Part shown: piece after piece, positions 4,226-61,860 of the stretch | Layout of the letters: the number at the start of each line of letters is the position of its first letter | Position numbering within the stretch: position 1 is the stretch's first letter | Source: Mesotaenium endlicherianum | Lineage: Eukaryota | Assembly (NCBI GenBank): GCA_009602735.1 | Contig: WELA01003606.1 | Coordinates: 142,770 to 206,769 of the forward strand | Direction: 5' to 3' | Length of the DNA: 64,000 bases | Notes under the pieces: generated by a model | The model's input: the letters and a program-made list of their open reading frames with translations, nothing else | Told to the model about the DNA's origin: nothing | The model's database searches: none | Made by a program: the position numbers and the translations under genes

Positions 4226-4654
4226 CCTGCTCATTCATACCACAATGGAGTTAGTGTAGTCATGATATCATGCACAGGATTGAGTATTTTGACAGGGAAG
4301 AACATAGTAGAGGGAGTTAGGGCATGCAATACCTCGTGTAAGTAAATTGAAAGTGCGAGTGTGCTTGAGAGAGAAGTAAGTGTGAGCGCAGTTGAATGTC
4401 AAGGATGAATGTGCAACGACAATTGGTAATTGGCTAGTTTTTGAGATGTTTATCCCACTCCCTCCAACTTAATGTTTAAGGTGGGTTGCTTGTTTCAACA
4501 ATCACTGGGCTGCCTGTCACAACTGTCACTCACTGTCAACAACTGTCACTTTCTGTCACTAACTGTCCCTTTAGGCCACGTTTGGCCACATTTTCCCACC
4601 AACTTAAATGGAGACAGGACCTCTTGTCACCTTCCCATGTCAACTGAAATGACA

Positions 4655-11439: not shown

Positions 11440-14400
11440 TCCAGTCTACTGACTGTGAGGATGCTAGAGATAGTGAGTCGTCACTAGCTGCCCTCGTAGC
11501 AGGTATTATGGGTCCTGCTGAACTGGATTCACTATGCATGCCTGACAACCAAATAAAGGAGACCATCAGCAATAAAGACATCCAGAGAGTGGACACTCTG
11601 GATGCTCTTGTTCCACCTGATGTCCAACATTTCTTTGCTAAGTCAGGAGAACAATGCGAAAGTCAGGAAAAGACAGTCCCCCCTATTCTACTGCATTGCA
11701 TGATTGCAGGTAGGAAGGTGAGGACATTTGTTGACGGAGGAGCGTCACAAAGTTTTATCCATAAGGACTTAGTTAAGCGGCTAAGACATCCTACTGTCAC
11801 CCAAGGGAATAGAAAAATATTCCTTGGAGATGCCTCAAATATCCCGGGAGGAGTTATAACCAAGCCTATTGAGGTCGAGTTAGGTTCTGGCATTACAGTT
11901 CTAACTGAAACGCTTACATTTGAGGTACTCAACACTGGCTTTTATGATCTCGTGCTAGTCAGGACCGGGCTGAATAGACATCAAGCTGAAGTGTGTTGGA
12001 GCAGAGGTACAGTGAAAGTGAGAGGAGCCAGTAATGGGCAGACTGACTTGGCACCCACCAGTGCTCTTCCTCTTGTCCTGTGTGGATGGCAATTGAAGGA
12101 ATAGAGGAGGCTTCCAGAAGAATGCAAGTTGCTGAATGCAATGGAGTTTGTGAAAAGCTCGAACCAGAAGGAAGACAGAATGTTCTGTCTGCTGCTAAGA
12201 GAGGTACCTCCTAAACCTGAAGAAGTGGTTGAGGAAAAGGTAAGCCCTTGGAGCACCCTATTGCTGCGAAAATTGTTGCTCAGTACACGGGTAGTGATTT
12301 GAGTCATTTTATATTAGTTCGCATATATTTTAATGTTTTCAAATATATTTGGAGTAGTATTGTGTGGATTCAAGTGTGAATAGGTACTCTAGTGACTTGG
12401 TTCATGTCCTTGGAACCTTCTAAGGCATTTTCGAAGTTAGAGGAAAGACCTAGAAGAACTCCACGTGGCAAAAGTCAAATGTGCCATTTTTAGGTCAAAA
12501 GGACATGTGTACATTATTGTAGAAAGAGGTGGCAAGTTTTGGGATGTGTTGGGTGCCAACACATCAACATACACCTTCCTAGAAATTACTTATGTAGCAA
12601 GTATATAAACAAGAGCTAGAACACAGAAAGACATTCCAGAATCACTCTTGTACTTGCCAAAATCCAGAAATATATTAACTTTCAAGAAGCCATCTCTCTT
12701 TCAAGAAGCTACCACTTGTGTTCAAAGATACTTGTCTTGAATAGATAAAGTATTATATTTCACTAAGTACTTCATCTATTTGTTTCACTACAACACGGAT
12801 GTATGTAATATGCCTCCGTGACTACCCCCTAAGAGAGAAGTAGATTACAGGATAGATTTATTTCCTGGGAGTCAACCACCCTGGCAACGCACTTATGGCT
12901 TGTTTTATGTAGAGAGCGAGGAGTTGAAAACACAGATTGCAGAGCTTGAGGAAAATGGTTATATTTCTCCCAGTAAATCACCTTACGGCGCACCCATCCT
13001 ATTTGTTAAGAGAAACGATGGCAGTATGCGGATGTGTGTGGATTACAGAGCTCTGAATAAAATTACAGTAAAGAACAAGTATGCTTTACCCAGAATCGAG
13101 GACTTGCTTGATACCCTGTCTGGTGCTAAGGTGTTCAGAAAAATAGATCTCAAGAGTGGTTATCATTAAATCAGAATTGCTGAGGGGGATGTACACAAGA
13201 CTACCTTCCGCACACGTTATGGACACTATGAGTTCAACGTGATGCCATTTGGACTGACTAATGCTCCTGCGACCTTCATGGGTGCTATGAATGACATTTT
13301 CAGACCTTATTTGGATAAGTTTGTGCAAGTTTTCCTGGATGATATTTTAATTTTCTCTAAAGATGAAGCTCAGCACACTGAACACTTAAAGACAATCCTG
13401 GACACTCTGAGAAAAAATCACTTATATGCTAAAATGAGCAAGTGTGATTTCTTTAAAGAAAGAATTGAATTCTTAGGCCACGTTGTCAATAAAGACAACA
13501 TCAGTGTGGATCCTAAGAAAGTCCGGACCATAAGGAACTGTCCAGTACCACAGTCTGTCTTTGAACTTAGATCCTTCCTCGGGTTGGCTAACTACTATAG
13601 GAGATTTATTGAGAATTTTTTACAAAGGCCAGGAAACTGACTGACCTTACTAAGAAAGACATAGGGGACGTGTGGGGGGAAGAGCAGCAGGCTGCCTTCC
13701 AGACCCTTAAAAATGCTCTTTGTTCTGCCCCAGTGCTAGCCGTGTATGACCCCAGCAAACCGGTGCAGGTGGTTACTGATGCCTCTGACTTTGCCATGGG
13801 TGCTATTTTGTTGCAGCCTGCTGACAAAATCACAAACGATGGTAAGGTACGGCAGGAGTTGCATCCTGTGTTGTACGAGTCTATGAAATTTAATCCAGTG
13901 GAGATTGATTACTCAGTGCATGATAAAGAGCTGCTAGCTATCATTCATGTGCTCAAACAGTGGAGAGCATACTTACATGGTAAAGCTTTTAAGGTGATTA
14001 CAGATCATCTAGCTCTCACTCACTTTCAGAAGAAGTCCAAGCTGTCGAGGAGGGAGAACCGCTGGAGCCAGATGCTGGAGGAGTTCCAAGTCCAGATCGA
14101 CTACAAACCAGGGAAGTTGAATCCAGCTGATGCACTCTCTAGAAGACCTGACTTGCAAGGAAGAAACTTTAGTCAGCATGCTGTAGATAAAGTCCTGTGT
14201 GCACTCACTTCACGAAAGGTGAAAAAGTCCTTCCTTGAACAACTTAGGAAAGCCTACCTTTCTGACCCAACATTTGAGCCCAGCCCCACTACTGGTGTGT
14301 GTCGTGCTACTGCACTCGGGTATAAACTTGAGGGAGGGGTCTGGGTGACTGAAACCACTTCAGGCAGGCTGAAGCTGGTCATTCCTAATAACTTGGAAAT

Positions 14401-15688
14401 ACGGTCCCTTTTATTGAGTCAAGCACATGACAGTCTACTGAGTGGGCATTTGGGGCAGGCCAAAACTGTTGGCAAACTGGCAAAACATTATCATTGGGAG
14501 GGATTGCCCCGGGTGGTCTTGAAATATGTGAAGTCCTGTGATCAGTGTCAAAGAAATGAGTCTAGGCACACACCCCCGGGAGGTCTCTTGCAACCGCTGC
14601 CCATCCCAGCGGGCCGCTGGGAAACTATATCCATGGACTGGGTGGTTACACTACCACGAACTGCTAATGGGCATGATTCGATACTGGTAGTCGTGGATAA
14701 AGTGACAAAAGTGGTCATTTTCATCCCCACTACTGTCAAAGTAACTGCGCTCGAAACAGGGAGACAGTTCTACAACCATGTAGTATGCCAACATGGACTA
14801 TCCTCTAATATCATCTCAGACCGAGACTCAAAATTTACCTCTAAGTTCTGGAGAGCTTTAATGGGGTTAACGGGAGTCAAACAGCTGCTCAGCACAGCAA
14901 ACCACCCTCACACTGATGGGCAGACTGAAAGAACAAACCGAGTTCTGCAGGAGGTGCTGAGAGCATATATTAACCAAAAACAAGATAATTAGGATGACCT
15001 GTTGCCTCAAATTCAGTTTGCGGTCAACAGTGCGGTGCACGCGTCAACGGGCAAGACTCCTTTTGAACTCAGCCTGGGTAGAGTCCCTAAGTCTCCTTTA
15101 GATGTACTGGGGGAGTCTTTAACTTACCCTGAAGGGATTGACAATCGGGTCTCCCTCCAGTTAACTCAGGAGTTTGCTGACACCCTGTCAGAAGTCCAAC
15201 AAAACCTGCATAAAGCTCAAGAAAACCAACAAAAATACGCTAATCAACACCGCCGGGAGCTGACATTTTCTAAGGGCGATTTAGTCAAACTGCATTCTCA
15301 GCACCTGTACCTCCCTGGTGTGGTCAAGAAAAAGCTTGGCCCCGTCTGGGTCGGTCCATATTCGGTGGTACGTCGTGTTGGTCAGAATGCTTACAAACTG
15401 AACATGTCGGCGGACTACAAGCGTTACCCGGTCTTTAATGTCTCCTTCCTGGAACCATACATCAAAGGTGATACACTGTTCACAGGTCGGCAACCCTGAG
15501 GAATATGAGGTCGATGAGATTTTAGACGCTCGCTCGGTCCGTCGATCGTCTAAATATGCCATGAAGTACCTCATCCGATGGAAGGGTTACGATGCCTCTG
15601 GGGACACTTGGGAGTTCAAACACCAGCTGAACAATGCCAAGGGGCGTTGAAAAGGTTCCACCTTCGGGCGGCTTGGGCACCGCCCTAA
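11415..15688 (+). pseudogene. pol: A2 pol (PR-RT-RH-IN-chromodomain) in the -1 frame, disrupted
   Basis: FVDGGAS protease, [10 protein letters not shown] and [19 protein letters not shown]ase H, HHCC and DDE integrase, WVGPY, chromodomain YLIRWKGYDASGDTWE. Confidence 0.92.
12290..12792. repeat. Family D solo LTR (503 bp)
   Basis: Termini (G)GTAGTGA...TCACTACA and TSD ACACG at 12285-12289 and 12793-12797; interrupts A2 pol. Confidence 0.88.
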
Positions 15689-15927
15689 CTGTCCCTTCAG
15701 TAGACATGGGCAGGTGACAGGAGGTCCTGTCTCCATATAAGTTGGAGGAGGATGTGACAGTTAGTGACAGTTGTGACAGGCAGCCCACCTTTAAAATTAA
15801 GTTGGAGGGAGTGGTATTCTATTTCGGGATCAACCGGAAAATCACTGATAACCATATTACACACTCAACCTGCGCTCACACTCACTTTCTCTCTAACTCA
15901 ATTTTCCCTTATATTCACTCACACCAG

Positions 15928-16035
15928 GTATTTCACACTAGGAACTCTCCCGATCGCGTTCCTCTTCATCAAGGGCACTCAGTAGCGGCAAAAAATCATG
16001 ACCTCACTAACTGCATTGTGTTTATGATTGAGCAG
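15928..16035 (+). other. Predicted spliceosomal intron in the ORF3 5' leader of A2
   Basis: CAG|GTATTT donor, CACTAAC branch site, GAGCAG|GATG acceptor. Equivalent introns in A1 (4227-4332), A3 (31913-32018) and A4 (40537-40644). Confidence 0.7.
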
Positions 16036-16036
16036 G

Positions 16037-17698
16037 ATGACTCAAAAGTCGGAACTCAAGAGGAAGAGAAGGGCGGAAGAGGCACATGCAGAATACTCGC
16101 AATTCCGTGGAGACGTCGAATCATCCTCCATCTCCGCTTGGGAATCACAACGACTCCAACAACAGCGGGAGGCACAGAAGAAGAAGGAGGAGGAGGAGGC
16201 CAAACTGAGGTAGGAAGAAATGGACAGAAAAGCTGCACAGGAAGCCAAGAAAGCAGAGGAGGAGAGGCAAGCTGAGGAGAGGCGGAAGCATCAGGATGAA
16301 GAAGAGGAGAGGAGAATCAGCAGCTACCGCTACACAGTACTGGGCAAGGGCTTCGATCTACTGGAAGAGGCCTTCAAGTATGCTCAGAGAGGTCGCAGTG
16401 AGTCACAGAAGGACATCCTCCAGAGGGAAGGAGTGACATCCGAAAACTTTGACAAGTATATAGAGGCCAGCACGGGGCTCCTCCTCTACCACGATTACGC
16501 CAGGATAGTAGGATATACGGTCAGAGAGGCCAAGGCAATGGCCCAGGTGCACGAAGCAGGGGCTGTATCGATTCCTGGTATCTAGGGGGAAGATAGGGTC
16601 ATCAGGATGATCCCCATGGACGCAGACAGCTTTAAGGACTCCACATCCCATAACAGGTTCAAGGCCATGTATAATGAGGTGGAGAGAAGGAGCTGTAAAT
16701 TCTTGGCCAGGGAAACCAGTCAGCTGGACTTTGCAGGGCACTGGCACCCTTGTACTCTGAAAGGGACAGACCCTGCCTTCTTCCAGAAGCCCACCGATTG
16801 GCGGTGAATGACCATCAACATGAGGGACCAGCAGATTGAGAGGGCGACGGATGAGGATTTCCTGACAGACCTAAAGGGGAACATAGTATTGCCCTCTCAC
16901 ATTGCGGCTTGGGACCCAAGATTGGATGGAGTCAGAGACTGCATGAGCCAAGAAATGCAGGGGGACAGAAGTAGGGCCCGAGAGTCATTCTCAAAAGGGA
17001 AGCACGCTTATGCCAACTGGGCAAGCAAGCAGGGGAAAAAGGACCTGTATGCGGTCCGAACTCAGCAGCCCCGACCAGCACCCAAAAGGGGAAGGTCAGT
17101 GGGATATTATTTTTCTCGGGAAGAACTGGAGCAGCTGACAGAAGAGACCCCAGAAGTCTCAAAGGAACCCGGGGACGGAGAGGAGGAGGAGTCAGAGGAA
17201 GACGAGGAGGAAGGCGAGGAGGAGGACACTAGCCCCGCCGTGATCCTGACACCTGCCACATCCCCTGTAAGGGAGAAGACTGAGTCGGCCCTGCAGCAGC
17301 TCGCTGAAGAGGAGGATATCACTTGGCTGGGAACTGCCATGGGACAGAGCCCATCTCCAGGCACGGAGACCTAGTCAGACAGGGCAGACAAGAGGGCTGC
17401 TAGAGTAATAGCCAGAGGCCTGCCAGCATCTCCCTCGCAGAGAGGGCATGTACCCTTAGCTCATGTCATGCAACATCCTTCTGGGATGCCGATATATGTA
17501 CCAGTCAGTTTGAGGGATGCCCCGGAAAAGGCTGCCTCCATTCAGTTTCAGACCGTGCAGGAGGAAACAGCACAGTTACTGCGTTCTCTGCCGGGTCCCG
17601 ACATGGAGCCTCCCTCTCTGACAGGCTTCAAAAGACCCCAAGACAGGAGGAGGACTCACTCCCCTAACCATAGGGCCCCAGGGGCATCTCCCTCCTAA
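16037..17698 (+). pseudogene. ORF3 accessory gene of A2 (allele I), 553 codons in one frame with 4 nonsense substitutions
   Basis: ORF pieces at 16028, 16220, 16607, 16808 and 17468 are all in frame. Layout: KRKRR, coiled-coil, conserved core, acidic tract, C-terminal GHVPLAHVMQHPSGMP. Confidence 0.9.
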
Positions 17699-18906
17699 GG
17701 GCGGAGGGCCAGGGGCATAGCATGCTAGATGGGAGAGGGATCAGTAATTTCAGTTGGGGAAACCTATGTACCCTTTGTCAATGTTGTCGAGGCGACAACG
17801 TGTTAAGTTGGAGGGACTGTAATGAATCAGTATATTGGTTGATATAATATTTATTTAAATAAAACAGTTTAATAAGTTCAGCCTGCTAAACTCTAGTTAA
17901 TAATCAGTCTGCTGGACTTTATATTTAATATCAGTTTAATGACTCAGTCGGAAGCAGCAGGCTGGAGTCAGCTTAAGTCAGCTTGCTGACACATTCTTTG
18001 ACAGCCAGCTGACTTTCGTACTCGGTAGCACCGAACTGCCTCGATATGCATCTAAGTGTGATATGCTAGATGAATGGCCAGATGACATCCCTACGATGGA
18101 TGGCGATTCGGGATGATGGGAGATGGCGGTTGTAAGGTCATAGGTTTATAAAGTGCATTTTTGAGTCTCATGAAAGTATGATTTGATTGTATAGTAGTGT
18201 AGAGTGCATTTTTGTGGACATTTTGATATAAAGTTCATCGAATTTGGTCAAGTATTGAGAGAATTATGGATTTCCGAAGTTTAATTAGTTTTGAGGTCGG
18301 CTGACGACTGTCCTTAATTCGCGGTGAGCGCGACCGTCGGATTGACCGACAGCGCCGAGCGATCTGGCCCGTTAGAATGAACTCGAACCTTCACGTAAGT
18401 TCGGCTGACGCGGAGTGCCGACTAGGACGATTTACCAAGAAGTTTCGGTTTAGCCTAGCGCGTCTAAGATAGAAAATTCTAGTAATGTCGATGCATGTAT
18501 ATGGACGTCAATTCGGCCCGACACGTCAGATTAGACTGATCTGGCTTACTCACGAATATTCTGGAAGGGACGATTTGACGAACACTTAAGAAAATCCGTA
18601 GCTTCCTCCTAGGGAGGAGCACTTAGGCAGAAAATTATAAATAGGCATAACTTCTTTGTTTCTTATCAGTTTTCACTTCCGTAAATTCCTACGGGTTTGT
18701 AATGACAAGGCCTTTCATCCTACATCATTTGTGAGCAATTTCTTGCCACTCAAAATGTCAAGTAATTTTCCTAAGCCTTCTTAGCAATATGCCGCTGCAC
18801 TCTTGAGTATGATGGCAACTAGCTTTGTTCCTCGTGAGTCACTACGCTTCCACTAGGGCACTCTGCCCTTTTCATCTGGTATCGGAGCAGGGCTGATTAT
18901 TATATT

Positions 18907-19925
18907 ATGGATTCGCAGTCGGTAGCTGGAGGAGGCAAACGTGTTGAGCATGTTGAGCGCGCGGGGCAGCAGGCAGCACCAACAATGACCAGAGAGCAAC
19001 AAGAGATGCAGGCGATGCTAAGGCAATTGGAGGAGAAGTCTACACCCAGTTTCAACAAAATATGCGCGCGGAGGTGGAGAGAATGGTGCGAGTTGTTATG
19101 GGGAACGTCGCTTCGACGAGTTCGGCACCTGCACCTGTTGTGCCACCGATTCATGTTAACCCAGTGGTGCAACCAATTATTCCACCCGCATCAGGAGTGC
19201 GTGCGCCTAAGCCTGAAGTTTATACTGGAGAGCGTGGATCGCCGTCTGTTCATCAATGGATTTTTGGAGTGAAGAACTTTATGGAGTACTCTGCGCTCAC
19301 GCCCGACAGGCAAGTCGCCTTTGTCATAACTTTGCTGCAGAAGAGTGCTGGAGCTTGGTATGAACGAGAAGAGCAGTTGTTTGGAGTTCCTGCTACTGTT
19401 GATCAGCTCTTTGAAGGCTTGAAGAGGCAATTTCAACCTATTGCACCCGAGGCTACCGCTCGAGATCTATTGGTGCGCCTTCGTCAGCGAGGAAGCGTTC
19501 AGGAGTATGTATCGCGCTTCAACGAGCTGGTGCTTCAATGTCCATCCATGCACGAGTCGGAGATGATGGACAAGTTCAAGAGGGGACTCAAGCCAACTGT
19601 GGCCAAGGAAGTGGCGCTCAAGGACCCTACCAGTCTTGGAGAAATGATGGCATTGGCAACAAGGGTCGACGCTGTGGAGTATAGTCAGAGGCAGTGGGGC
19701 AGCCACAACTTTGGAGGATATCGACACTTTGGATCTCAAGCGCCAAGCACGAGTGGACAAGGCCCAGTACCCATGGAGTTGGGACTTGTGCAGTACCAGC
19801 GCAGGCAGCAGAATTTCAAGCCGAGAGGACCGTGCTATAGTTGCGGCAAGCTTGGACATCTGGCTCGAGACTGTCATGTGAAGGCGAAGCAACCTCAACA
19901 GCAGGAAAAAGGAGGACGCCAGTAA
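18907..19925 (+). pseudogene. gag: B2 gag (one frameshift near 19045)
   Basis: PKPEVYTG, LRQRGSVQEYVSRF, GPVPMELG, and CCHC knuckle CYSCGKLGHLARDC. Confidence 0.9.
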
Positions 19926-22900
19926 GTCGTTCTGGGGTGTCTACTGGCGTGAAGACGAGAACTCACAAGGAGGTTATCCCCAGGAGCCTGCCGAGAAGCA
20001 AAAGACGAGATGTTGACAAGCCTCTCATCGTGGAAGGAGTGGTCGACGGCAACAAGGCGAAGTGTATGGTCGACAGTGGCGCAAGTGCAGATTTTGTGCA
20101 CAAGAAGCTGGTGGAACAGTGGCGAATCCCTGTGCAGAAGCATTATGAGCCTAAGGAGGCAATTTTGGCTAATGGGCAGAGACTCAAGTGTGGTGCACCT
20201 ACGAAAGCTATTCACGTGGAAGTAGCGGGGCACCAGAATCAGGAAGTCATGGAGCAGGCAGAGTTAGGTCACCATGCGGTGATATTGGGCCGACCATGGC
20301 TNACCATGAGGTGATATTGGGCCGACCATGGCTAAGAAAAGCCAACCCTCAAGTGCACTGGAGCACAGGACAAGTGAAAGTCCAAGGGTGTGATGGTCGA
20401 ATGGAGACAGCAAAACAGGTTGAGGTAGATACGACCACAAGTAACTGTCTTCTGTCGAGCCTGCAAGTTAAGAAGCTATGCAGGGCGAATCAGGTGAAGG
20501 AGATGCACCTTGTTTCGGTGATCCAGGCCAGGTCATCAGATGGAGCAAGCGTGATTCCTAACAGCCTGGGCGAATGTACATCGCCGGAGGAGCAAGTAGT
20601 GGTGTCTGATCCCCTTGCTCAGAAGGAGCAGAGCCCAACTGCTCAAGAGAAGAAGCCTGCTGAGATGCCTGCCCAAATTAAGGCGCTTTTGGAGGAGTTC
20701 AAGTGCGTATTTCCTGAGGAACTACCTGCAGGATTACCTCCACAGAGAGCTATGGAGCACCGGATTGAGTTGGAACCAAGGAGCAAGCCACCAGTGAGAC
20801 CCGCCTATCGACAATCGTTTGCGGAGTTGGATGAGTTGAAGAAGTAGCTGACAGGGTTGTTGGAGAAGGGATTCATCCGACCCAGCGAGTCTCCATTTGC
20901 AGCGCCAGTCTTATTTGTGAAGAAGAAGGATGGGACTATGAGGATGTGTGTTGACTATCGGGCTCTCAACAAGGTCACCATCAAGAACAGGTACCCACTT
21001 CCACGAGTGGACGAGTTGATTGACAGGCTTGTCGGGGCGAAGTATTTCTCAAAGATCGATTTGAGGAGTGGCTATCACCAGGTACGGATTGCGGAAGGAG
21101 ACGTTCAGAAGACTGCTTTCAGAACTCGCTATGGTTTGTTCGAGTTCACAGTCATGCCTTTTGGATTGACTAATGCACCTGCTACATTCATGAAACTTAT
21201 GAATAGTATCTTCACGCCCTACTTGGACCAGTTTGTGGTGGTATTTTTGGACGACATCCTGATCTATTCAAAGACCTTGGAGGAGCATGTGGGGCATCTG
21301 AGGAAGGTGTTGGAGGTCTTGAGAGATCAAAAGCTGTGTGGGAAGATGAGCAAATGCGACTTCTGTCTCAAGGAGGTCGAGTTTCTTGGACACATAGTGG
21401 GAGCTGAAGGAGTCAAGGTGGAGCAGAAGAAGGTGCAAGCAGTCAGAGATTGGCCGGTACCTGCTGATATTCATCAACTCAGGAGTTTCCTCGGCATGGC
21501 GAATTATTATCGACGTTTCATTGAAGGATTTGCCAAGGTATGTGCACCGCTCACGGACATGTTGAAGAAGCAGGAGAAGTGGCTATGGGGTGACAAGGAG
21601 CAGCAAGCATTTGAGAAGATTAAGGAGCTGTTGACACAGGCACCTTTGTTGGCAATTGCAAGTCCAGAGCTTCTTTTCACCATCATCACAGACGCGTCAA
21701 ACTTTGCAATGGGAGCCATTCGTCTCCAGGACCAGGGCAAAGGATTGCAGCCTGTGGCATATGAGAGCAGGAAGTTGAGTCCTGCTGAGCAAAACTATGC
21801 AGCACACGAGCGGGAGATGTTGGCTATTATCCAGGCTTTGAGGATTTGGCGATGTTATGTGGACGGCCGGAAGGTGTTCATAAAGACCGACCACAAGAGC
21901 TTGGAGAAGTTTATGACGCAGCCAACGTTGAAACCAAGACAAGCAAGGTGGATGGAGTTTCTGCAACAATTTGACCACAAGATTGAGTACTTACCTGGGA
22001 GACGCTCTATCCAGGAGGTGTGACCTTGCAGCTGTTTCAGTCATTAAGGAGAATATGGACTTCAAGAAGAAGCTTCAGAGAGGTTATGAGGAGGACCCAG
22101 AGTTTGCTGATGGCGGAGCAGCTGAGTCCAACTCGAGCATGCAGAAGAAGGACGGCATATGGTATTATGATGATTCCAACAGAGTGGTGGTACCTGACAT
22201 CAAGGAGCTACGAGACTTACTACTTGCGGAGCATCATGACTGCTTATATGCTGGACACTTGGAAGCGAGAAGACGGCAAGCGTGCTGAAGCGAGAGTACT
22301 ATTGGAGAAATATGGACAAGGACATTGAGGAGTGGATCAGGAGTTGTGATGCGTGCCGAGGAAACAAGACACCAAATCAAAAGAAGGGAGGTACATTGCA
22401 GCCCCTGCCTATTCCAGAGTATCCTTGGGAGCAGATTGCTATGAACTTCATCACATCGTTACCAGTCAGTGGTCAAGGGCACGATGCAGTATGGGTTGTG
22501 TCTGACAGACTCAGCAAGATGGCTCACTTCATTCTCATGAAGGAGACTTCTACGGCAGCGGATGTGGCACGGCCATTCCTTGATCATATTTTCAGGCTAC
22601 ATGGGTTGCCGAAAGTGATCGTTTCAGATCGGAATCCAAGGTTCACTAGCAACTTTTGGCGGTCATTGTTTACTTGATAGGGACCAAGCTGAGTATGAGC
22701 ACTTCCTATCATCCTCAGACAGACGGGCAGAGTGAGAGACTCAACAGAACTCTGCAAGAGGTGCTCAGGAGTTTCACTATGGAAGACCCTTCAGAGTGGG
22801 ACAAGAAGCTACCAGGGTTGGAGTTTGCCTACAACAACAGCATGCAGGGATCCACCAAGCGGTCACCATTCGCTATGGTTTATGGGCGAGAAGTATATTA

Positions 22901-23561
22901 TCCAGGGAACATCTTGTTGGAGAAGGCCAAGGAGACTCAGGTTCCTACTACACAAGCTTTTATGGAGCAGATGGCCAAGACTTGGGATATGGCAAAGACG
23001 TGTATTCGGAAGGCACAGGAAGAGCAGGTCAAGCATGCTAACAAGCACAGGAGGGAAGTGACATTCCATGTGGGCGGCAAAGTACTCTTGTCCAAAGAGA
23101 TCATACCTTTCACAGGCAAAACGAAACTGCGGGCACGATTTACAGGTCCCTTTGTAGTGCTTAAGCAGGTGAACCCAGTGGCCTACAAGTTGGAACTTCC
23201 TTCAGGCTGGCGTATCCATGACGTGTTCCATGTCAGTTGTTTGCGGCCATACGTTGACCCGAATGAAGGACATCCAGGACGACTACCTACACCGCCACCA
23301 CCGGTCGAGATCGATGACGTATTGGAGTATGAAATGGAGGCGATTGTCGGCGATCGACGAGTCAAGCGAGGTCAACGATTTGTCCAAGAGTATCTGGTCA
23401 AGTGGAAAGGGTACCATGCGGACGACAACACTTGGGAGCCAGAGGCCAACTTGACTCATTGTAAGAGTAAGTTGAGACGTTATTTGCAGAATGCGTCGAG
23501 AACGTCGCATCTTGAGGAGGGGGATGATGTAAGGTCAGAGGTTTATAAAGTGCATTTTTGA
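19904..23561 (+). pseudogene. pol: B2 pol (PR-RT-RH-IN-chromodomain) running into the 3' LTR; one stop and several frameshifts
   Basis: [71 protein letters not shown]. Confidence 0.93.
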
Positions 23562-25082
23562 GTTTCATGAAAGTATGATTTGATTGTATAGTAGTGTAGA
23601 GTGCATTTTTGTGGTCATTTTGATATAAAGTTCATCGAACTTGGTCAAGTATTGAGAGAATTATGGATTTCCGGAGTTTAATTAGTTTTGAGGTCGGCTG
23701 ACGACTGTCCTTAATTCGCGGTGAGCGCGACCGTCGGATTGACCGACAGCGTCGAGCGATCTGGCCCGTTAGATAGAACTCAAACCTTCACGTAAGTTCG
23801 GCTGACGCGGAGTGCCGACTAGGTCGATTTACCTAGAAGTTTCGGTTTAGCCTAGCGCGTCTAAGATAGAAATTTCTAGTAATGTCGATGCATGTATATG
23901 GACGTCAATTCGGCCCGACACGTCAGATTGGACTTATCTGGCTTACTCACGAATATTCTGGAAGGGACAATTTGACGAACACTTAGGAAAATCCGTAGCT
24001 TCCTCCTAGGGAGGAGCACTTAGGCAGAAAATTATAAATAGGCATAACTTCTTTGTTTCTTATCAGTTTTCACTTCTGTAAATTCCTACGGGTTTGTAAT
24101 GACAAGTCCTTTTATCCTACATCATTTGTGAGCAGCTTCTTGCCACTCAAAATGTCAAGTAGTTTTTCTAAGCCTTCTTAGCAATATTCCGCTGCACTCT
24201 TGAATATGATTGCAACTAGCTTTGTTCCTCGTGAGTCACTACGCTTCCACTAGGGCACTCTGCCCCTTTCAGTGGTGGATTTGGTTAACCGAGGTCCTAC
24301 CAACGTGGTTAACTCCCGGGTAGGCGGTGCCATCGCACTGGCCGTTGAACAGTAAACTCATTCCATGTACATATGCTAGGCATTGCTCTCGAGTTCGACA
24401 TTTGGAAACGAGGCCAACTCTCTTGTACAGCTTATTGAGAGAGATCTGAATCCAAGGCGAGAAGCCATTGATACGCACTGTCTTCTAACCTTACTTATGT
24501 ATGAGTTTACTGATTGCATTATTGATGCTCGTTTACTTGCATTTGATTTACGAGTGTTGTTCAGTGCTAGTGTGTTGTCCTTTTGCCGTTTAATCAGTTA
24601 ACTTAAAATCCATAAAGATTACTTGCTGATATAAAGATCTTTATTAATTGTTGATCGCCTATTTGGTAAGTCGATTCATTTCATCGTATCTACCTCCACC
24701 TGTTTCGCTGTCTCCATTCGACCATCACGCCCTTGGACTTTCACTTGTCCTGTGCTCCAGTGCACTTGAGGGTTGGCTTTTCTCAGCCATGGTTGGCCCA
24801 ATGTCACCTCTTGGTGACCCAACTCTGCCTGCTCCTTAACTTCAGTACTCTGGTGCCCCGCTACTTCCACGTGAATAGCTTCCGTAGGTGAACCACACTT
24901 GAGTCTCTGTCCATTCGCCAAAATTGCCTCCTTAGGCTCATAATGCTTTTGCACAGGGATTCGCCACTCTTTCACCAGCTCCTAGTGCTCAAAGTTTGCA
25001 CTTGCGTCACTGTCGACCATACACTTCGCCTTATTGCCGTCGACCACTCCTTCCACGATGATAGGCTTGTCAACGTCTCGTC

Positions 25083-30234: not shown

Positions 30235-31911
30235 CTAGGGGGTTATTCCTGGGGCTTCAGGATCAGGAGACCGAGATCTGGACCTAGATCTGGACAGCCC
30301 TCTAGGTCTGTCAGCTGGCCTTCTAAAGAACCCCGTTTGCTCTAAAGTTGGACCTCGAGGAGAACGAAGGATGGTAGCCTGCTCTTCACCCACTTGGGTG
30401 TTGATCCCCACAGAGACAGGCATTCCAGTAGGATGCTGAAATACATTGGCAAGAGGTACATGCCCCTGGGTGGAGGGGGAGGCGGGCATACCTCTGGCCC
30501 ACCCGCGTGTCCCTCTTCTGGCACCCCTGTCCTCTGGAGATTTCTGCCTATGTCTGCTGCCCAGTACAGTCAGATCAGCTTCTTCCCCTGCTTGGGCAGG
30601 TGGGCTGGGGGAGCGAGTGCGGGGTCCAGTTGCCTCCATGACGGGGATCACGTTCCAAATACCTGATCGTGGTTCTTTGGGAAGTGCCCCTGCCTGCCCC
30701 TGGGTCTCCTGAGTACCAGCTGCTGATGCTTCTCCTCTGCCTTGTTCTTCTTCTTCATCGTTTTCATCCTCCTCCTCGGAGAGAGTAGGGGTCTCGTCCA
30801 CTAAGTCGTCCTGCTCCCTAGTAGACATGGAGTAGTCTACCGACCTCCCTTTCTTAGGGCGCGCTGGAGGTTGCTTGGCCTTTAGCCTGCTGATATCTAT
30901 CCGGCCTGCATTCTTCGCCCATTTGACGAAGGCATGCTTTCCCTCAGAGAAGTAGTCTCTCCCCCTCCTCCTGTGCTCCTTATTCTCTGCATTCATATTG
31001 CTCAGGTAGCCATTCAGCCTGGGGTCCCAAGGGGCAATGTGAGGTGGTAGGATGAGATAGCCGTCTAGGCCATAGTGGAAGTCATCCGGTTGGGCTCGGT
31101 CACAATCCTGCTTCTTATTTGTCACGGTCATCCACCTCCAGTCTGTTGGCTGCTGGTAGTAGTGGGGTCCGACCTCAGCCTTCCTCAGTTTACACGAGAA
31201 CCAGTGGGGAGAGAACATCTGCTGTCCTGCTTCCCTGGCCAAGTACTCCCAGCTCCTCCTCTCAACTTCATTGTAAGCTGGCAGTAATGTGAGGTAGAAT
31301 ACCGTATCCTTAAAGCTATCGGGCCGCATGCTCACCATCCGGATGAGTCTCTGATCTCCCACTATTCCCGGTATGGGGACCGGCTTGTCCTCTGAATCAT
31401 CTGCATGGTACCGGGCCTGCTCTGCTGTATAGCCCACCATCTTGGCATAATCTTCGTAGAGGACCACACCAGTGTGTGTCTCGATGTACCTATCCAGTGC
31501 TGCAGTTCCTTTCCTCTATAGCAGTGTTGTCTGTTCCAGCTTGTTGATCTCTTGGGCTGCCAGCAATGCTTCCTTCAGGTTATCAAAGTTTCGGCCACCC
31601 ACCACAGTATGCCTGTAAGTGGCCAAGCTGTTCTGTCTGTCCGCTACAATCTTTTTCCTTCTCTCCTCCTCTGCCGCTGCCGCTTCCTCTTGTCGTTTCT
31701 TCTGTCTCTCCTCCTCAGCTTTCCTGAGGTTTTCCGCTTCCTGATCCTTCTTCCTTTGTGCCTCTTCTGCCGCCTCTTGTTGTCTGCGGACCCTTTCTTG
31801 TTCTCTCTTGGTGAGGGACGTCGCCGCCAGCTCCTTCTGGTATTGCTCCATTGTCCTCCCGGCTTCTTCTGCCTTGCGCTAACTGTCCTCCTTTTGTGTG
31901 GTGGGAGCCAT
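30235..31911 (-). pseudogene. ORF3 accessory gene of A3 (divergent allele II), 558 codons with 2 in-frame stops
   Basis: ATG at 31911 is in frame with ORFs 31516-31851 and 30235-31467. Shares DSFKD, YNEVERRS, QPTDWRWMT, LPPHIAPWDPRLNG, FSEGKHA and GHVPLANVFQHPTGMP with allele I. Confidence 0.88.
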
Positions 31912-32278
31912 CCTGTACATGAAACCAGGGCATAAGTTAGTAGGATATCGACCTTTGTCATAGGGATTGCAGGCAGGAAGTATGTTTGTATTAGTATGGT
32001 GGATTCGCTCCTGTTTACCTTACAGGGTGATTGCTAAAAGTCGACGTAGTTGCGGTGCGCTAACATAAACGTATGAATATGTTTTAAGTTGAGTTAAGTG
32101 AAGTTAGCTCAAGGTGCTTTATGTGGGCCAGGCTGTCCCATCTGTCACTATGCTGACACTTAGGATTCACGTAACTGTCCCTTTATCGCTCTCGTTCACT
32201 AATTGTCATATATTTTCCCCTCCAACTTAAATGGAGACAGGACCGCCTGTCACCTTCCCATGTCAACTGAAATGACAG

Positions 32279-35200
32279 TTATGGAGGGGCTCCAGCCGCC
32301 CGAAGGTGGAACCGTTTCAACGCCCCTTTGGCATTGGTCAAATGGTCCTTCAATTCCCAAGTGTCCCCAGAGGCATCGTAACCCTTCCATCGAATGAGGT
32401 ACTTCATGACATATTTAGACGATTGACGGATCGAGCGCGCGTCTAAAATCTCCTCAATCTCATATTCGTCAGAGTCGCCGTCCCTGACAGCGGGGACCGG
32501 TCCCGGTTGGACAGGGTACCGACCCGTGAACAGTGTATCACCTTTGATGTATGGTTCCAGGAAGGAGACATTAAAGACCGAGTGACCCTTGTATTCGGCT
32601 GACATGTTCAGGGGTGTAAGCATTCTGACCGACACGACGCACCACCAAATATGGACCGACCCAGACAGGGCCAAGCTTTTTCTTGACCACACCAGGGAGG
32701 TACAGGTGCTGAGTGTGCAGTTTGACAAAATCGCCCTTAGAAAATGTCAGATCCCGACGGTGTTGATTAGCGTATTTTTATTGGTTTTCTTGGACTTTGT
32801 GCAGGTTTTGTTGGACTTCTGACAGGGTGTCTGCAAACTCCTTACTTAACGGTGGTTTGCTGTCCTGAGCAGCTGTTTGACTCCCATTAACCCCATTAAA
32901 GCTCTCCAGAACTTAGGGGTAAATTTTGAGTCTCTGTCTGAGATGATATTAGAGGGTAGCGTATGTTGGCATACTACATGGTTGTAGAACTGTCTCGCTG
33001 TTTCGAGTGCAGTCACTTTGACAGTTGTGGGGATAAAATTGACCATTTTTGTCAGTTTATCTACGACTACCAGTATCGAATCAAGCCATTGGCAATTTTT
33101 GGTAGTGTGACCACCCAGTCCATGGATATAGTCACCCAGTCCATGGATATAGTTTCCCAGCGTCCAGCTGGGGTGGGGAGTAATTGCAAGAGACCTCCCG
33201 GTGGTGTGTGCCTAGACTTATTCTTTTGACACTGATCACAGGATTTTACATATTTCAAGACCTCCCGGGGCATCCCTTCCCAATGAAGTTGTTTTGCCAG
33301 TTTGCCAACTGTTTTGGCGTGCCCCAAATGCCCACCCAGTAAACTGTCATGTGCTTGACTCAATAAAAGGGACCTTATTTCCAAGTTATTAGGAATGACC
33401 AGCTTCAGCCTGCCTGAAGTGGTTTCAGTTACCCAGACCCTTCCCTTAAGCTTATACCCGAGTGCAGTAGCACGACACACACCAGTAGTGGGGCTGGGCT
33501 CAAATGTTGGGTCAGAAAGGTAGACTTTCCTAAGTTGTTCAAGGAAGGACTTTTTCACCTTTCGTGAAGTGAGTGCACACAGGACTTTATCTACAGCATG
33601 ATGACTAAAGTTCCTTTCTTGCAAGTCAGGTATTCTAGAGAGTGCATCAACAGGATTCAACTTCCCTGGTTTGTAGTCGATTTGGACTTGGAACTGCTCC
33701 AGCATCTGGCTCCAGCGGTTCTCCCTCCTCGACAGCTTGGACTTCTTCTGAAAGTGGGTCAGAGCTAGATGATCTGTAATCACCTTAAAAGCTTTACCAT
33801 GTAAGTATGCTCTCCACTGTTTGAGTACATGAATGATAGCTAGCAGCTCTTTATCATGCACTGAGTAATTAATCTCCGCTGGATTAAATTTCATAGACTA
33901 ATACAACACAGGATGCCACTCCTGCCGTACCTTACCATCCTTTGTGGTTTTCTCAGCAGGCTTCAACAAAATAGCACCCATGGCAAAGTCAGAGGCATCA
34001 GTGACCACCTGCACCAGCTTGCTGGGGTCATACACGGCTAGCACCGGGGCAGAACAAAGAGCATCTTTAAGGGCGTGGAAGGCAGCCTGCTGCTCTTCCC
34101 CCCAAACATACCCTATGTCCTTCTTAGTAAGGTCAATCAGTTTACTGGCCTTTGTAAAATAATTCTCAATAAATCTCCTATAGTAGTTAGCCAACCCGAG
34201 GAAGGATCTAACTTCAGAGACAGACTGTGGTACTGGCCAGTCCCTTATGGTCTGAACTTTCTTAGGATCCACACTGATGCCGTCTTTACTGACAACGTGG
34301 CCTAAGAATTCAATACTTTCTTTAAAGAAATCACACTTGCTCATTTTAGCATATAAGTGATTTTTTCTCAGAGTGTCCAGGACTGTCTTTACGTGTTCAG
34401 CGTGCTGAGCTTCATCTTTAGAGAAAATTAAAATATCATCCAGGAAAACTTGCACAAACTTGTCCAAATAAGGCCTGAAAATGTCATTCATGGCACCCAT
34501 GAAGGTCGCAGGAGCATTTGTCAGTCCAAATGGCATCACGTTGAACTCATAGTGTCCATAACGTGTGCGGAAGGCAATCTTGTGTTCATCTCCATCAGCA
34601 ATTCTGATTTGATGATAACCACTCTTGAGATCTATCTTACTGAACACCTTAGCACCAGACAGGGTATCAAGCAAGTCCTCGATTCTGAATAAAGCATACT
34701 TGTTCTTTACTGTAATTCTGTTCAGGGCTCTGTAATCCACACACATCCGCATACTGCCATCCTTTTTCTTAACAAATAGGATGGGTGCGCCGTAAGGTGA
34801 TTTACTGGGAGACATATAACCATTTTCCTCAAGCTCTGCAATCTGTGTTTTCAACTCCTTGCTCTCCACATAAGACAAGCCATAAGTGCATTGCCAGGGT
34901 GGCTGACTCTCAGGTAATAAATCAATCCTATGATCTACTTCCCTCTTAGGGGGTAGTCACGGATCCGTGTACTGAGCAACAATTTTCGCAGCAGTAGGGT
35001 GCTCCAGAGGGCTTACCTTTTTCTCCACCTCTTCTTCAGGTTGAGGAGGTACCTCTCTTAGCAGCAGACAGAACATTCTGTCTTCACTCTGGTTCCAGCT
35101 TTTGACGAACTCCATTGCATTCAGCAACTTGCATCCTTCTGGAGGCCTCTTCTTTTCCTTCATTTGCCATCCACACAGGACAAGAGGAAGAGCACTGGTG

Positions 35201-36567
35201 GGTGCCAAGTCAGTCTGCCCATCACTGGCTCCTCTCACTTTAACTGTACCTCTGCTCCAACACACTTCAGCTTGATGTCTATTAAGCCAGGACCTGCCTA
35301 GCACGAGATCATAAAAGCCAGTGTTGAGTATCTCAAATGTAAGCGTTTCAGTTAGAACTGCAATGCCAGAACCTAACTGGATGAAATGTATCGACTTACC
35401 AAATAGGCGTTTAACAATTAATGAAGATCTTTATATCAGCAAGTAATCTTTATGGTATTTTTCGTTAACTGGTTTAACGGCAAAGGACAACACACTAGCA
35501 GTGAATAATACTCGTCAGTCAAATGAGAGTAAACTAGCATCAATAATGCAAATCAGTAAACTCATACATAAGCAAGGTTAGAAGACAGTGCGTATCAATG
35601 GCTTCTCGCCTTGGATTCAGATCTCTCTCAGTAAGCTGTACAAGAGAGTTGGCCTCGTTTCCGAATGCCGAACTCGAGAGCAATGCCTAGCATATGTACA
35701 TGGAATGAGTTTACTGTTCAACGGTCAGTGCGATGGCACCGCCTACCCGGGAGTTAACCACGTTGGTAGGACCTCGGTTAACCAAATCCACCGCCATCTC
35801 CCATCATCCCGAATAGCCATCCATCATAGGGATGTCATCTGGCCATTCATCTAGCATATCGCACTTAGATGCATATCAAGGCAGTTCGCTGCTACCGAGT
35901 ACGGAAGTCAGCTGGCTGTCAAAGAATGGGTCAGCAAGCTGACTTATATGGACTTCAGCTTGCTGCTTCCGGCTGAGTCATTAAACTGATAATTATGTAA
36001 AGTCCAGCAGACTGACTATTTAACTAAAGTTCAGCAGGCTGAACTTAATTAACTATTATATTTAAATGAATATTACATCCACTAATATACTGATTCATTA
36101 CACTGGACCTCAATAGGCTTGGTTATAAATCCTCCCGGGATACTTGAGGCATCTCCAAGGAATATTTTTCCCTTCCCTTGGGTGACAGTAGGCAGCCTTA
36201 GCCGCTTAACTAAGTCCTTGTGGATAAAAGTATGTGACGCCCCTCCGTCAACAAATGCCCTCACCTTCCTACCTGCAATCATGCAATGCAGTAGGATAGG
36301 GGGGACTGTCTTTTCCTGACTTTCGCATTGTTCTCCTGACGTAGCAAAGAAATGTTGGACATCAGGTGGAACAAGAGCATCCAAAGTGTGCACTCTCTGG
36401 ACGTCTATATTGCTGATGGTCTCCTTTATCTGGTTGTCAGGCATGCATAGTGAATCCAGTTCAGCAGGACCCATAATACCTGCTACGAGGGCAGCTAGTG
36501 ACGACTCACTATCTCTAGCATCCTCACAGTCAGTAGACTAGATTACTAACTGTTGCTGTCTTTTAAA
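32279..36567 (-). pseudogene. pol: A3 pol, disrupted
   Basis: PR, RT (33898-34878), RNase H, integrase and chromodomain EYEIEEILDAR..YLIRWKGYDASGDTWE. Confidence 0.92.
35382..36102 (-). repeat. Family A solo LTR inserted in the A3 protease region
   Basis: TG...CA ends with TSD CTGGA at 35377-35381 and 36103-36107. Confidence 0.93.
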
Positions 36568-40535: not shown

Positions 40536-40893
40536 CCTGCCCAATCATAAACAAAATGCCGTCAATGAAGTCATGATACTTTGCCGCTACTGAGTGCCCG
40601 TGGTTAAGAAGAATGTGATAGGGAGAGTCCCTAGTGTGTAGTACCTTGTGTGAATGAGTATAAGAGAGAATTGAGTTAGAGAGAAAAAGTGCGTATGAGC
40701 GCAGGTTGAGTGTGTAGAATGGTTATAAAATTTGCCTGGCTGATCCCGAAACGGAACACACTCCCTCCAACTTAATTTTAAAGGTGGGCAACCTGTCACA
40801 ACTGTCACTATCTGTCACTAATTGTCACATTCCCCTCCGACTTATACGGAGACAGGACCTCTTGTCACCTGTCCATGTCCACTGAAATGACAG

Positions 40894-43800
40894 TTAGGGA
40901 GGGGTGCCAGCCGCTCGAAGGTGGAACCGTTTCAACGCCCCTTTGGCATTGGTCAGTTGGTCTTTAAATTCCCAAGTGTCCCCAGAGGCGTCGTAACCCT
41001 TCCATCTGACCAGGTACTTCTTGACATGTTTAGATGATCGACGGACAGAGCGAGCGTCAAAATCTCCTCCACCTCATATTCCTCAGGGTCACCATCCGGG
41101 ACAGCGGGGACCGGTCTCGGTTGGACAAGTAACCGACCTGTGAACAGTGTGTCACCGTTGATGTACGGTTCCAAGAAGGAGACATTAAAGACTGGGTGAC
41201 CCTTGTGATCTGCTGACATGTTCAGTTTATAAGCATTCTGACCGACACGGCGCACCACCGAATATGGACCGACCCAGACCGGACCAAGCTTTTTCTTGAC
41301 CACACCAGGTAGGTACAGGTGCTGAGAATGCAGTTTGACCAAATCGCCCTTAGAAAAGGTCAGCTCTCGACGGTGCTGATTAGCATATTTTTGTTGATTT
41401 TCTTGGGCTTTGTGCAAGTTTTGTTGGAATTCCGACAGGGTGTCAGCAAACTCTTGTGTTAACTAGAGAGAGACCGGATTGTCAATCCCTTCAGGGTGAG
41501 TTAAAGACTCCCCCAGTACATCTAAAGGAGACTTAGGGACTCTACCCAGGCTCAGTTCAAAAGGAGTCTTGCCCGTTGACGCGTGCACCGCACTGTTGAT
41601 CGCAATCTGGATTTGAGGTAACAGGTCATCCCAATCATCTTGTTTTTGGTTGATATAGGCTCTCAGCACCTCTTGCAAAACTCGGTTAGTTCTTTCAGTC
41701 TGCCCATCAGTTTGAGGGTGGTTTGCTGTGCTGAGCAGCTGCTTGACTCCCTTTAACCCCATTAAAGCTCTCCGAAACTTAAAGGTAAATTTTGAGTCTC
41801 TGTCTGAGATGATATTAGAGGGTAGCGTATGTTGGCATACTACATGGTTGTAGAACTGTCTCGCTGTTTCGAGTGCAGTTACTTTGACAATTGTGGGGAT
41901 GAAAATGACCATTTTTGTTAGTTTATCCACGACTACTAGTATCGAATCATGCCCATTGGCAGTTCGTGGCAGTGTGACCACCCAGTCCATAGATATAGTT
42001 TCCCAGCGGGCAGCTGGGATGGGCAGCGGTTGTAAGAGGCCCCCCGGTGGTGTGTGCGTAGACTTATTCTTTTGACACTGGTCACAGGACTTAACGTATT
42101 TCAAGACCTCCCGAGGTAATCCCTCCCAATGATAATGTATTGCCAGTTTGCCAATAGTTTTGGCCTTCCCCAAATGCCCACCCAGTAAACTGTCATGAGC
42201 TTGACTCAGTAAAAGGGACCTTATTTCCAAGTTATTAGGAATGACCAGCTTCAGCCTGCCTGAAGTGGTTTCAGTCACCCAGACCCCACCCTTAAGTTGA
42301 TACCCGAGTGCAGTAGCAAGACACACACCATCAGTGAGACGGGCTCAATGTTAGGTCAGAAAGGTAGGCTTTCCTAAGTTGTTCAAGGAAGGACTTTTTC
42401 ACCTTTCGTGAAGTGAGTGCACAAAGGACTTTATCTACAGCATGCTGACAAAAGTTTCTTTCTTGCAAGTCAGGTCTTCTAGAGAGTGCATCAGCAAGAT
42501 TCAACTTCCCTGGTTTGTAGTCAATCTGGACTTAAAACTGCTCCAGCTTCTGGCTCCAGCGGTTCTCCCTCCTTGACAGCTTGGACTTCTTCTGAAAGTA
42601 AGTCAGAGCTAGATGATCTGTAATCACCTTACAAGCTTTACCATGTAAGTATGCTCTCCACTGTTTGAGCACATGAATGATTGCTAGCAGCTCTTTATCA
42701 TGCACGGAGTAATTAATCTCAGCTGGATTAAATTTCATTGACTTATACAACACAGGATGCCACTCTTGTTTTACCTTACCATCCTTTGGGGTTTTGTCAG
42801 CAGGCTTCAACAAAATAGCACATATGGCAAAGTCAGAGGCATCAGTGACCACCTGCACAGGATTGCTGGGGTCATACACGGCTAGCAATGGGGCAGAACA
42901 AAGAGCATCTTTAAGGGTCTGGAAGGCATCCTGCTACTCTTCCCCCCACACATACCCTATGTCTTTCTTAGTAAGGTCTGTCTTTGTAGAATAATTCTCA
43001 ATAAATCTCCTATAGTAATTAGCCAACCCAAAGAAGGATCTAACTTCAGAGACAGACTGTGGTATAGGCCAGTCCATTATGGTCTGGATCTTCTTAGGAT
43101 CCACACTGATGCCTTCTTTGCTGACAACATGGCCTAGAAATTCAATACTTTCTTCGAAGAAATCACACTGCTCATTTTAGCATACAATTGGTTCCTTCTC
43201 AGAGTGTCCATGTGCCCCTTTCACCTTGACTGTCTTTAAGTGTTCAGCATGCTGAGCTTCATCTTTGGAACAAGAAAAATATCATCCAAGAAGACTTGCA
43301 AAAACTTATCCAGGTAAGGTCTAAAAATGTCATTCATAGCACCCATGAAGGTTGCAGGAGCATTGGTCAGTCCGAATGGCATCACGTTGAACTCATAGTG
43401 TCCATAACGTGTGCGAAAGGCAGTCTTGTGTTCATCCCCCTCAACAATTCTGATTTGATGATAACCACTCTTGAGATCCACCTTACTGAACACTTTAGCA
43501 CCAGACAGGGTATCAAGCAAGTCCTCAATTCTGGGTAAAGCATACTTGTTCTTTACAGTAATTTTGTTAAGAGCTCTGTAATCAACACACATCCGCATAC
43601 TGCCATCCTTTTTCTTAACAAAGAGGATGGGTGCACCATAAGGTGATTTACTGGGGGAAATGTCACCATTTTCCTCAAGCTCTCCAATCTGTATTTTCAA
43701 CTCTTCGCTCTCCACATAAGACAAGCCATAAGTGCGTTGCCAGGGTGGCTGACTCCCAGGTAATAAGTCAATCCTGTGATCCACTTCCCTCTTAGGAGGT

Positions 43801-56300: not shown

Positions 56301-56714
56301 AGGCGTGCCATCTGGCGGCTGTTCCGGCGCGGGATAGCACTTTGAGGACAGCTGGCTTTTGAGCTGGAGCATCTTTTCGACTGTCTTAGCCCCTAGCAGC
56401 GGCAGCACCTTTTTGGCTGCTGCCAGAGAGGCCTCCTCGTCCACGCCCACGCCCAACTCCTCCGCCGCAAGCCAGCACTGCACACCCATCACCCACCCAC
56501 CCACCCACGTGTGCCCACCCACACGCCCACAAACTTCCGGCTAAGGCTGCCTGCCCACTGTCTGAAACTCTGCCAGGCAGTCCCTCCAGCCACAGAGAGC
56601 TGGCCTCCCAGCCGCAGCAAGCCCCTCACACCCCATGTCTGCGTGTGCTGGTGTTTTTGAAGGAAAGAATGCTTGTGCTTGCGCGTGTACATGTGCGTGT
56701 GTGTGCACACATCC

Positions 56715-56774
<60 letters not shown>

Positions 56775-60714: not shown

Positions 60715-60766
<52 letters not shown>

Positions 60767-61829: not shown

Positions 61830-61860
<31 letters not shown>

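Follow-up and report, generated by a model that had tools for sequence, protein, structure and literature searches.

Organization of the locus

Nested LTR retrotransposons fill the first 47 kb of the window, i.e. of the whole 64 000 nt stretch of DNA that was analysed. Four of the copies, A1 to A4, belong to one family, A, which encodes a Ty3 capsid with a zinc knuckle, a protease, a reverse transcriptase (RT), an RNase H and an integrase, and which shows the LTRs (TG..CA), primer binding site (PBS), polypurine tract and gag-PR-RT-RH-IN order of Ty3/Gypsy LTR retrotransposons. The LTRs are about 720 bp long, the PBS is TGGTATCGGAGC, which we take to be of the iMet type, and the polypurine tract, TAAGTTGGAGGGA, sits ahead of the 3′ LTR. 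The C-terminus of pol, as read by eye, is chromodomain-like (EYEVDEIL..YLIRWKGY..DTWE, with the aromatic residues present); the Pfam Chromo match obtained in the window belongs to a nested element of another family, B, and not to family A. With the chromodomain assigned by eye, family A would be a chromovirus-type Ty3/Gypsy element. Its named RT relatives are mostly from plants, with at most 66% identity among the matches listed; the accessible part of one survey gives chromodomains with an aromatic cage as restricted to algae, mosses and club-mosses (PMC6317226), so that a green alga or a non-seed plant would be the likely host. The features discussed below are collected in Table 1.

Several other insertions and two host genes were noted. 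The family B chromodomain element (18131-24271) is inserted in the 3′ LTR of A2; its 744-bp LTRs are 96% identical and it carries no counterpart of the accessory ORF described in the next section. The LTR at 30122 closes A3 (window positions 38548-37832 and 30122-29421 for its two LTRs); beyond it come a PBS and another gag, as in a tandem element with one LTR in common. A solo family A LTR, flanked on each side by CTGGA, lies in the protease region of A3 (35382-36102). In the U5 part of the LTR (24450-24600), a T-rich stretch beginning with GTATGAGT resembles a further leader intron. Downstream, an expressed host gene (49788-52106, plus strand) consists of a single ORF of 772 aa with several RGRP words, presumably AT-hook-like, and a GC-rich, multi-exon gene (53300-63900, minus strand) has introns packed with microsatellites; one exon of the latter (GKLRVLDSIL..KVLIISQ) recalls, in our estimation, part of an SNF2/MOM1-type helicase. 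The Pfam scan returned no match for either gene.

Table 1. Positions of the features in the window (copy A2 unless another copy is named)
Feature	Positions	Strand	Remarks
3′ part of pol	13796..15700	+	RNase H, integrase, chromodomain; with breaks
TGACA(G) array after pol stop	15700..15800	+	4 occurrences (0.18 expected); candidate enhancer, putative function
First internal polypurine-tract copy	15738..15752	+	followed by TG; left cassette border; in all four copies
TATA-like TTTAAA	15790..15795	+	138 nt ahead of donor; weak, varies among copies
Second internal polypurine-tract copy	15798..15813	+	A1, A2 and A4; absent from A3
Putative 5′-UTR intron	15928..16035	+	108 nt, GT..AG
Branch-site-like CTAAC	16007..16011	+	A at -26
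ORF3	16037..17698	+	553 codons, four internal stops
Polypurine tract adjoining 3′ LTR	17804..17817	+	right cassette border
3′ LTR, first part	17818..18130	+	remainder 24274-24683, beyond nested element
Donor-like GTAAGT in U5	24666..24671	+	18 nt short of LTR end
Putative intron, A1	4227..4332	-	106 nt; ATA after acceptor; in-frame ATG 9 nt upstream
ORF3, A3	30235..31911	-	divergent type with RS-rich tail; 558 codons, two internal stops
Putative intron, A3	31913..32018	-	106 nt; shares only signals and length
Internal polypurine-tract copy, A3	32215..32229	-	similarity to A2 ends here
Skip of ~290 nt in pol tail	32515..32804	+	GT..AG on element-antisense strand; RNA of related copy
Putative intron, A4	40537..40644	-	108 nt; branch word TTGAC

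An accessory gene between pol and the 3′ LTR

Each family A copy carries, in the sense orientation between pol and the 3′ LTR, an ORF of about 555 codons (ORF3), which starts one base past the putative splice acceptor examined below. Stop codons interrupt it in every copy. The dN/dS ratio among A1, A2 and A4 ranges from 0.11 to 0.24, and the ORF3 of A3 retains 42-45% amino-acid identity with the others at saturated synonymous sites (pS 0.76-0.78): ORF3 is a genuine gene under purifying selection. In the protein, the N-terminal part is charged, a core of about 260 residues and a C-terminal block are conserved, and an acidic stretch is present as well; a KRKRR word is found in A1, A2 and A4, and the A3 version terminates in RS repeats. 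Neither a transmembrane helix nor a signal peptide was detected (peak 19-residue hydropathy 0.61-0.80, with A4 read to codon 450 and A1 to codon 240); because it lacks a hydrophobic membrane helix, the term 'env-like' of the first-pass annotation does not suit the protein.

Homologues of ORF3 were found neither in a set of 5.8 billion sequences (searched at near lengths, then at longer ones), nor among 1.84 billion representatives, nor among viral contigs. Pfam assigned no family (one match at E=0.024, below the cut-off) and the PDB sequences gave nothing beyond one match at E=0.74. Structure prediction was poor (two folds, mean pLDDT 36). Two metagenome contig loci considered as possible relatives turned out to be unrelated bacterial-looking genes with one 8-residue word in common.

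In each of the four elements, a near-exact copy of the terminal polypurine tract occurs about 40 nt past the pol stop, followed by TG (ATATATG in A3), and the second internal copy lies 60-135 nt beyond the first in the three copies that have it. When A3 is compared with A2, the pol tail and the LTR are 91% identical (pol pS 0.14), and similarity falls at the first internal tract to resume just before the terminal one; the interval between them is deeply diverged, with 45% amino-acid identity versus 91% identity for pol and LTR. Since the LTRs of A3, as paired here (38548 and 30122), are 97.4% identical, A3 is a young element bearing an old, divergent cassette. ORF3 and its putative intron form a cassette bounded by copies of the polypurine tract, a finding of the present analysis, and the simplest reading would be that cassettes are exchanged through template switching at the repeated tract. 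In a DNA-like sequencing run (X1), the depth of the A2-type cassette was about 20, against 70-130 in the pol tail (contig depth being a rough measure), and a second contig broke off into A3-type sequence, from which we conclude that several cassette types coexist. An origin of the spacer from a family A or B LTR, of which it would be a remnant, received no support, the best local scores (17-24) being all alike.

Splice-like signals ahead of ORF3

The first-pass annotation had proposed that a short conserved spliceosomal intron ends one base before the ORF3 start codon, and its positions and lengths (108 nt for A2 and A4, 106 nt for the other two copies) proved right. The donor AG|GTA and the acceptor CAG|G-ATG (G-ATA in A1) were found in all four copies, as was a YTRAC branch-like word with its A at -25 or -26, which is CTAAC in A1, A2 and A3 and TTGAC in A4. 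Every copy therefore displays the signals of a U2-type intron (GT donor, YAG acceptor and branch word near the 3′ end); a clear polypyrimidine tract is absent. An in-frame ATG lies 9 nt before the ORF3 start, within the putative intron, in A1 and A3, the corresponding triplet being TTG in A2 and A4, so that the match to an acceptor may be partly coding. The four putative introns contain 2, 2, 6 and 3 ATGs. The 170 nt preceding the donor contain none in A1, A2 and A4; A3 has three in the 200 nt before its donor.

The composite pattern of signals is expected by chance 0.03 times per shuffled window (0.02 with block shuffles) and none of 100 shuffles reached four matches; in the real window it matches these four places and no other, the four matches being there by construction, since the pattern was derived from those very copies. 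With the start codon of A3 held fixed, none of 200 000 shuffles of the 301 nt upstream rebuilt all three signals, and the product of the single-signal rates upstream of that codon is about 1e-6. When G-AT was dropped, the looser pattern also matched once in pol, on its antisense strand, at homologous positions of three copies (3 matches, 0.67 expected), which indicates that such patterns may arise once by chance.

The core of the A3 intron is 46-49% identical to that of the other copies, i.e. at the level of shuffled sequences (47-48%). Between A1 and A2, for which the dS of ORF3 is 1.35, the intron core is 46% identical, the last 37 nt 84% and the first 6 nt 5/6, as compared with 70% for the exon-side spacer and 74% for the ORF3 core. 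Because the copies are related, they provide about two independent contrasts rather than four (A3 versus the others, and A1 versus A2); in both, donor, branch word, acceptor and length outlast neutral sites. The earlier argument that A3 reveals selection on the splice signals is therefore upheld: signals and length persist there in spite of a core at shuffle level and saturated synonymous sites in ORF3. Such conservation indicates that the stretch is a real, selected feature. It is probably an intron, with splicing predicted from its signals, and we consider it likely that this intron is in actual use.

RNA and DNA reads across the cassette

Reads were mapped from 6 of the 13 listed runs, over the intron copies of A2, A3 and A4; the share of the raw run that was read amounted to 6% for X5, 13% for X8, 24% for X11 and 24% for X13. 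The single-ORF host gene at 49788-52106 was evenly covered by reads 99% alike, which shows that the runs are from the same species, and it served to set the strand rule (first mates opposite to the RNA in X5, X11 and X13, X8 being unstranded). No joint was seen at the A2, A3 or A4 intron in the six runs, for a sense depth of about 1x and a listing threshold of 3 reads. The mapped stretches took in no junction of a host gene that could have served as a control, the introns of the host having been read by eye. The A4 5′ LTR and ORF3, used as a joint reference, gave no LTR-to-ORF3 joint, again at low sense depth. The sense reads inside the A2 intron were few and unspliced (at 15933, 2 of 5 in X5 and 1 of 11 in X11). 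Over A3-type ORF3, sense depth was 1.2 in both X11 and X13, versus 0.2 and 0.0 one bin upstream, and 0.0 in X5; this excess hints weakly at a short RNA in the sense orientation and could also be a 3′ bias due to poly(A) selection.

Most stranded reads were antisense to the element. Antisense versus sense depth over A2 (15920-16031) was 9.05 versus 0.47 in X11 and 2.74 versus 1.28 in X5; in the A3 pol tail, antisense depths of 5.9, 9.1 and 6.2 stood against sense depths of 0, 0.2 and 0. Antisense RNA spans the pol tail, the spacer and the intron (15160-16100, 31967-32633 and 41305-41971, in runs of three studies) and its coverage stops 60-75 nt inside ORF3. To a large extent these reads represent one haplotype, and a single copy transcribed from a host promoter may be their source. 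The joint of about 290 nt in the pol tail was seen in X8 only (6 reads, 4 starts), a genomic deletion being an alternative source.

In the DNA-like run X1, a single contig over 15708-16632 retains the intron, and no intron-less form was listed (one run, in which contigs lose rare variants).

How is ORF3 expressed?

The explanation that we favour, with a probability of roughly one half, is that the stretch is the 5′-UTR intron of an ORF3 mRNA with an internal start, and that it persists because it is the unspliced genomic RNA that is copied. An internal promoter behind the pol stop would direct a short RNA made of a leader exon, the intron and ORF3; splicing of this RNA would yield the ORF3 mRNA and take out the 2-6 upstream ATGs held by the intron, and the full-length RNA, left unspliced, would serve as the copying template, hence the retention of the intron. 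The TGACA array and the TATA-like word ahead of the donor favour such a promoter. TGACA occurs 4, 5, 7 and 4 times per copy within 100-175 nt near the first internal tract, for 0.2-0.3 expected, the region having been picked by eye. Points against this model are the weakness of the TATA-like word, the three ATGs ahead of the A3 donor, the lack of a clear polypyrimidine tract, the in-frame ATG of A1 and A3, the predominance of antisense RNA, the unspliced state of the few sense reads in the A2 intron, and the failure to see a joint at the intron when X8 did reveal a neighbouring GT..AG joint, with 6 reads.

The first-pass annotation had left two routes to a dedicated ORF3 mRNA, an internal promoter and an env-like long splice, and it is the former that fits better. 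In the long splice, the intron would again be real, and the mRNA would start in the 5′ LTR, the GTAAG of U5 being joined over gag-pol to the ORF3 acceptor, either directly or via a small middle exon ending at the local donor. That GTAAG is present 18 nt before the end in all six complete LTR ends examined, the pol stop of every copy is followed by an acceptor-like (C/A)TAA(C/A)TGTC..TTCAG, and the route is a known one, as the accessible parts of the reports on Athila ORF2 (PMC7197481) and Bagy2 (PMC7264820) indicate. The conservation of these words says little, however, since the LTR and pol-tail DNA around them is 85-97% identical, and the joint reference revealed, at low sense depth, no junction of this kind. 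The direct form, moreover, needs no local donor and leaves its maintenance unexplained; since every lineage retains this donor, it should mark the end of an exon. We consider the long splice unlikely.

It is rather doubtful, too, that there is no intron at all and that the conserved words are a translation-start context (ATG-NNC-AGG-ATG) together with promoter elements, possibly those of an antisense RNA running from ORF3 into pol. The in-frame ATG at -9 is found in the two most divergent copies, A1 and A3, no junction read was obtained (at a sense depth of about 1x), and the antisense RNA that dominates in X11 and X5 ends inside ORF3, so that the words could serve that transcript. What this reading fails to account for is AG|GTA at a fixed distance of 106-108 nt and the YTRAC word at -25/-26, which survives as TTGAC in A4; besides, A2 and A4 have TTG at -9, and the antisense reads, being mostly of one haplotype, may stem from one copy under a host promoter.

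Quite improbable, finally, is an intron whose splicing is immaterial to ORF3, either the relic of a captured host gene, as the insertion-like position of the cassette between polypurine-tract copies might suggest, or a sequence needed only in the DNA or genomic RNA (promoter or packaging), spliced copies dying out, as might be expected from the overlap of intron and promoter in Penelope and Chlamys described in the accessible text of 10.1101/2021.04.23.441226: the GT and AG of a relic would decay once neutral sites saturate, the searches made gave no cellular homologue of ORF3, the intron core, where a DNA-level element should sit, is the least conserved part, and the region folds no better than shuffles.

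An inverted repeat (15758-15767/16004-16013) that might mask the branch site on genomic RNA was likewise rejected, folding no better than shuffles (z from -2.0 to 0.0 in 8 folds), and an Rfam scan of 15600-16200 gave no match.

Relation to known elements

Introns spliced out of the template vanish from new copies, as is established (PMC12786077, in its accessible part). The persistence of a sense intron through round after round of reverse transcription marks the copied RNA as an unspliced one and suggests that there is another, dedicated mRNA. According to what is accessible of two reports, plant LTR retrotransposons are mostly devoid of introns, and the expression and role of their extra ORFs are open questions (PMC12786077, PMC7264820).

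Extra ORFs expressed by splicing are not without precedent, and any function given to ORF3 is a guess. Athila ORF2 and Bagy2 are sense extra ORFs for which a spliced subgenomic mRNA is reported (accessible parts of PMC7197481 and PMC7264820), and they share with SIRE eORF-3′F and ORF3 the position between pol and the 3′ LTR and an acceptor just ahead of the start. Unlike them, ORF3 is carried by an element with a chromodomain (identified by eye), lacks a hydrophobic helix or a Pfam family, is preceded by a full short putative intron with its own donor, and lies on a tract-bounded cassette. Penelope and Chlamys-3_cRei keep a sense 5′-UTR intron at an internal promoter, as far as the accessible text goes (10.1101/2021.04.23.441226), which resembles the model for ORF3, whose promoter is a putative one; these Penelope-like elements, in contrast, copy by another mechanism and their intron precedes the RT gene rather than an accessory gene. 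Functional sense introns are also retained in the plant LTR retrotransposons Ogre and EVADE (accessible parts of PMC12786077 and PMC6317226), where they are located inside gag-pol and control the Gag:Pol ratio; none of them belongs to the leader of an accessory gene at the 3′ end. Internal polypurine tracts are common to family A and to EVADE and HIV, which have central ones in the accessible account of PMC7197481; those of family A, unlike the latter, reproduce the terminal tract almost exactly and are found where pol meets the cassette, and their role in priming is putative. No chromovirus in which a short intron precedes an accessory ORF in sense orientation, within a cassette bounded by such tracts, was encountered in the open-access literature searched; a case of this kind could be described in subscription papers or in the REXdb supplements.

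A possible functional analogue is CERV of the C. elegans element Cer1, a protein of 517 aa made from a spliced mRNA and, in the accessible part of PMC10309623, needed for export of the unspliced genomic RNA. CERV and ORF3 are both orphans, comparable in size and provided with a basic word that resembles a nuclear-localisation signal, a likeness by description; unlike ORF3, CERV has exons in common with gag. The KRKRR word of A1, A2 and A4, the RS-rich tail of A3 and the lack of a membrane helix are at most hints of a Rev/CERV-like role in nuclear export. One may speculate, at long odds, that a chromovirus of the green lineage has in ORF3 a regulator of the Rev/CERV type, carried with a stage-specific TGACA promoter and a 5′-UTR intron on a swappable tract-bounded cassette; its spliced mRNA would yield a nuclear protein routing only unspliced genomic RNA to packaging, hence the intron in every copy, and lineages would trade divergent cassettes on one pol/LTR backbone. 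As to the TGACA words, a TGACA half-site occurs in the Chlamydomonas zygote element ZYRE and in KNOX-BELL sites (accessible part of PMC4889651). The exact ZYRE 9-mer, YGACAYGAC, has two matches in the window, neither within an array, the YGACA half being the only common part; this likeness in sequence can be taken as a lead only.

Family A amounts to a natural experiment, in that backbones with 91% identity carry ORF3 cassettes that agree by only 45%, and it offers sharp tests, the model predicting one junction and one start region.

A last observation concerns the sequence directly after the pol stop (15685-15705 in A2, and also A1, A3 and A4). There, the word TGTCATTTCAGT(G/T)G, TGTCCCTTCAGTAG in A2, resembles both a splice acceptor and the LTR-end/PBS junction of the element (TCATTTCAGTGG), and in all four copies it is followed by a three-codon ATG-GGN/GAC-AGG-TGA.
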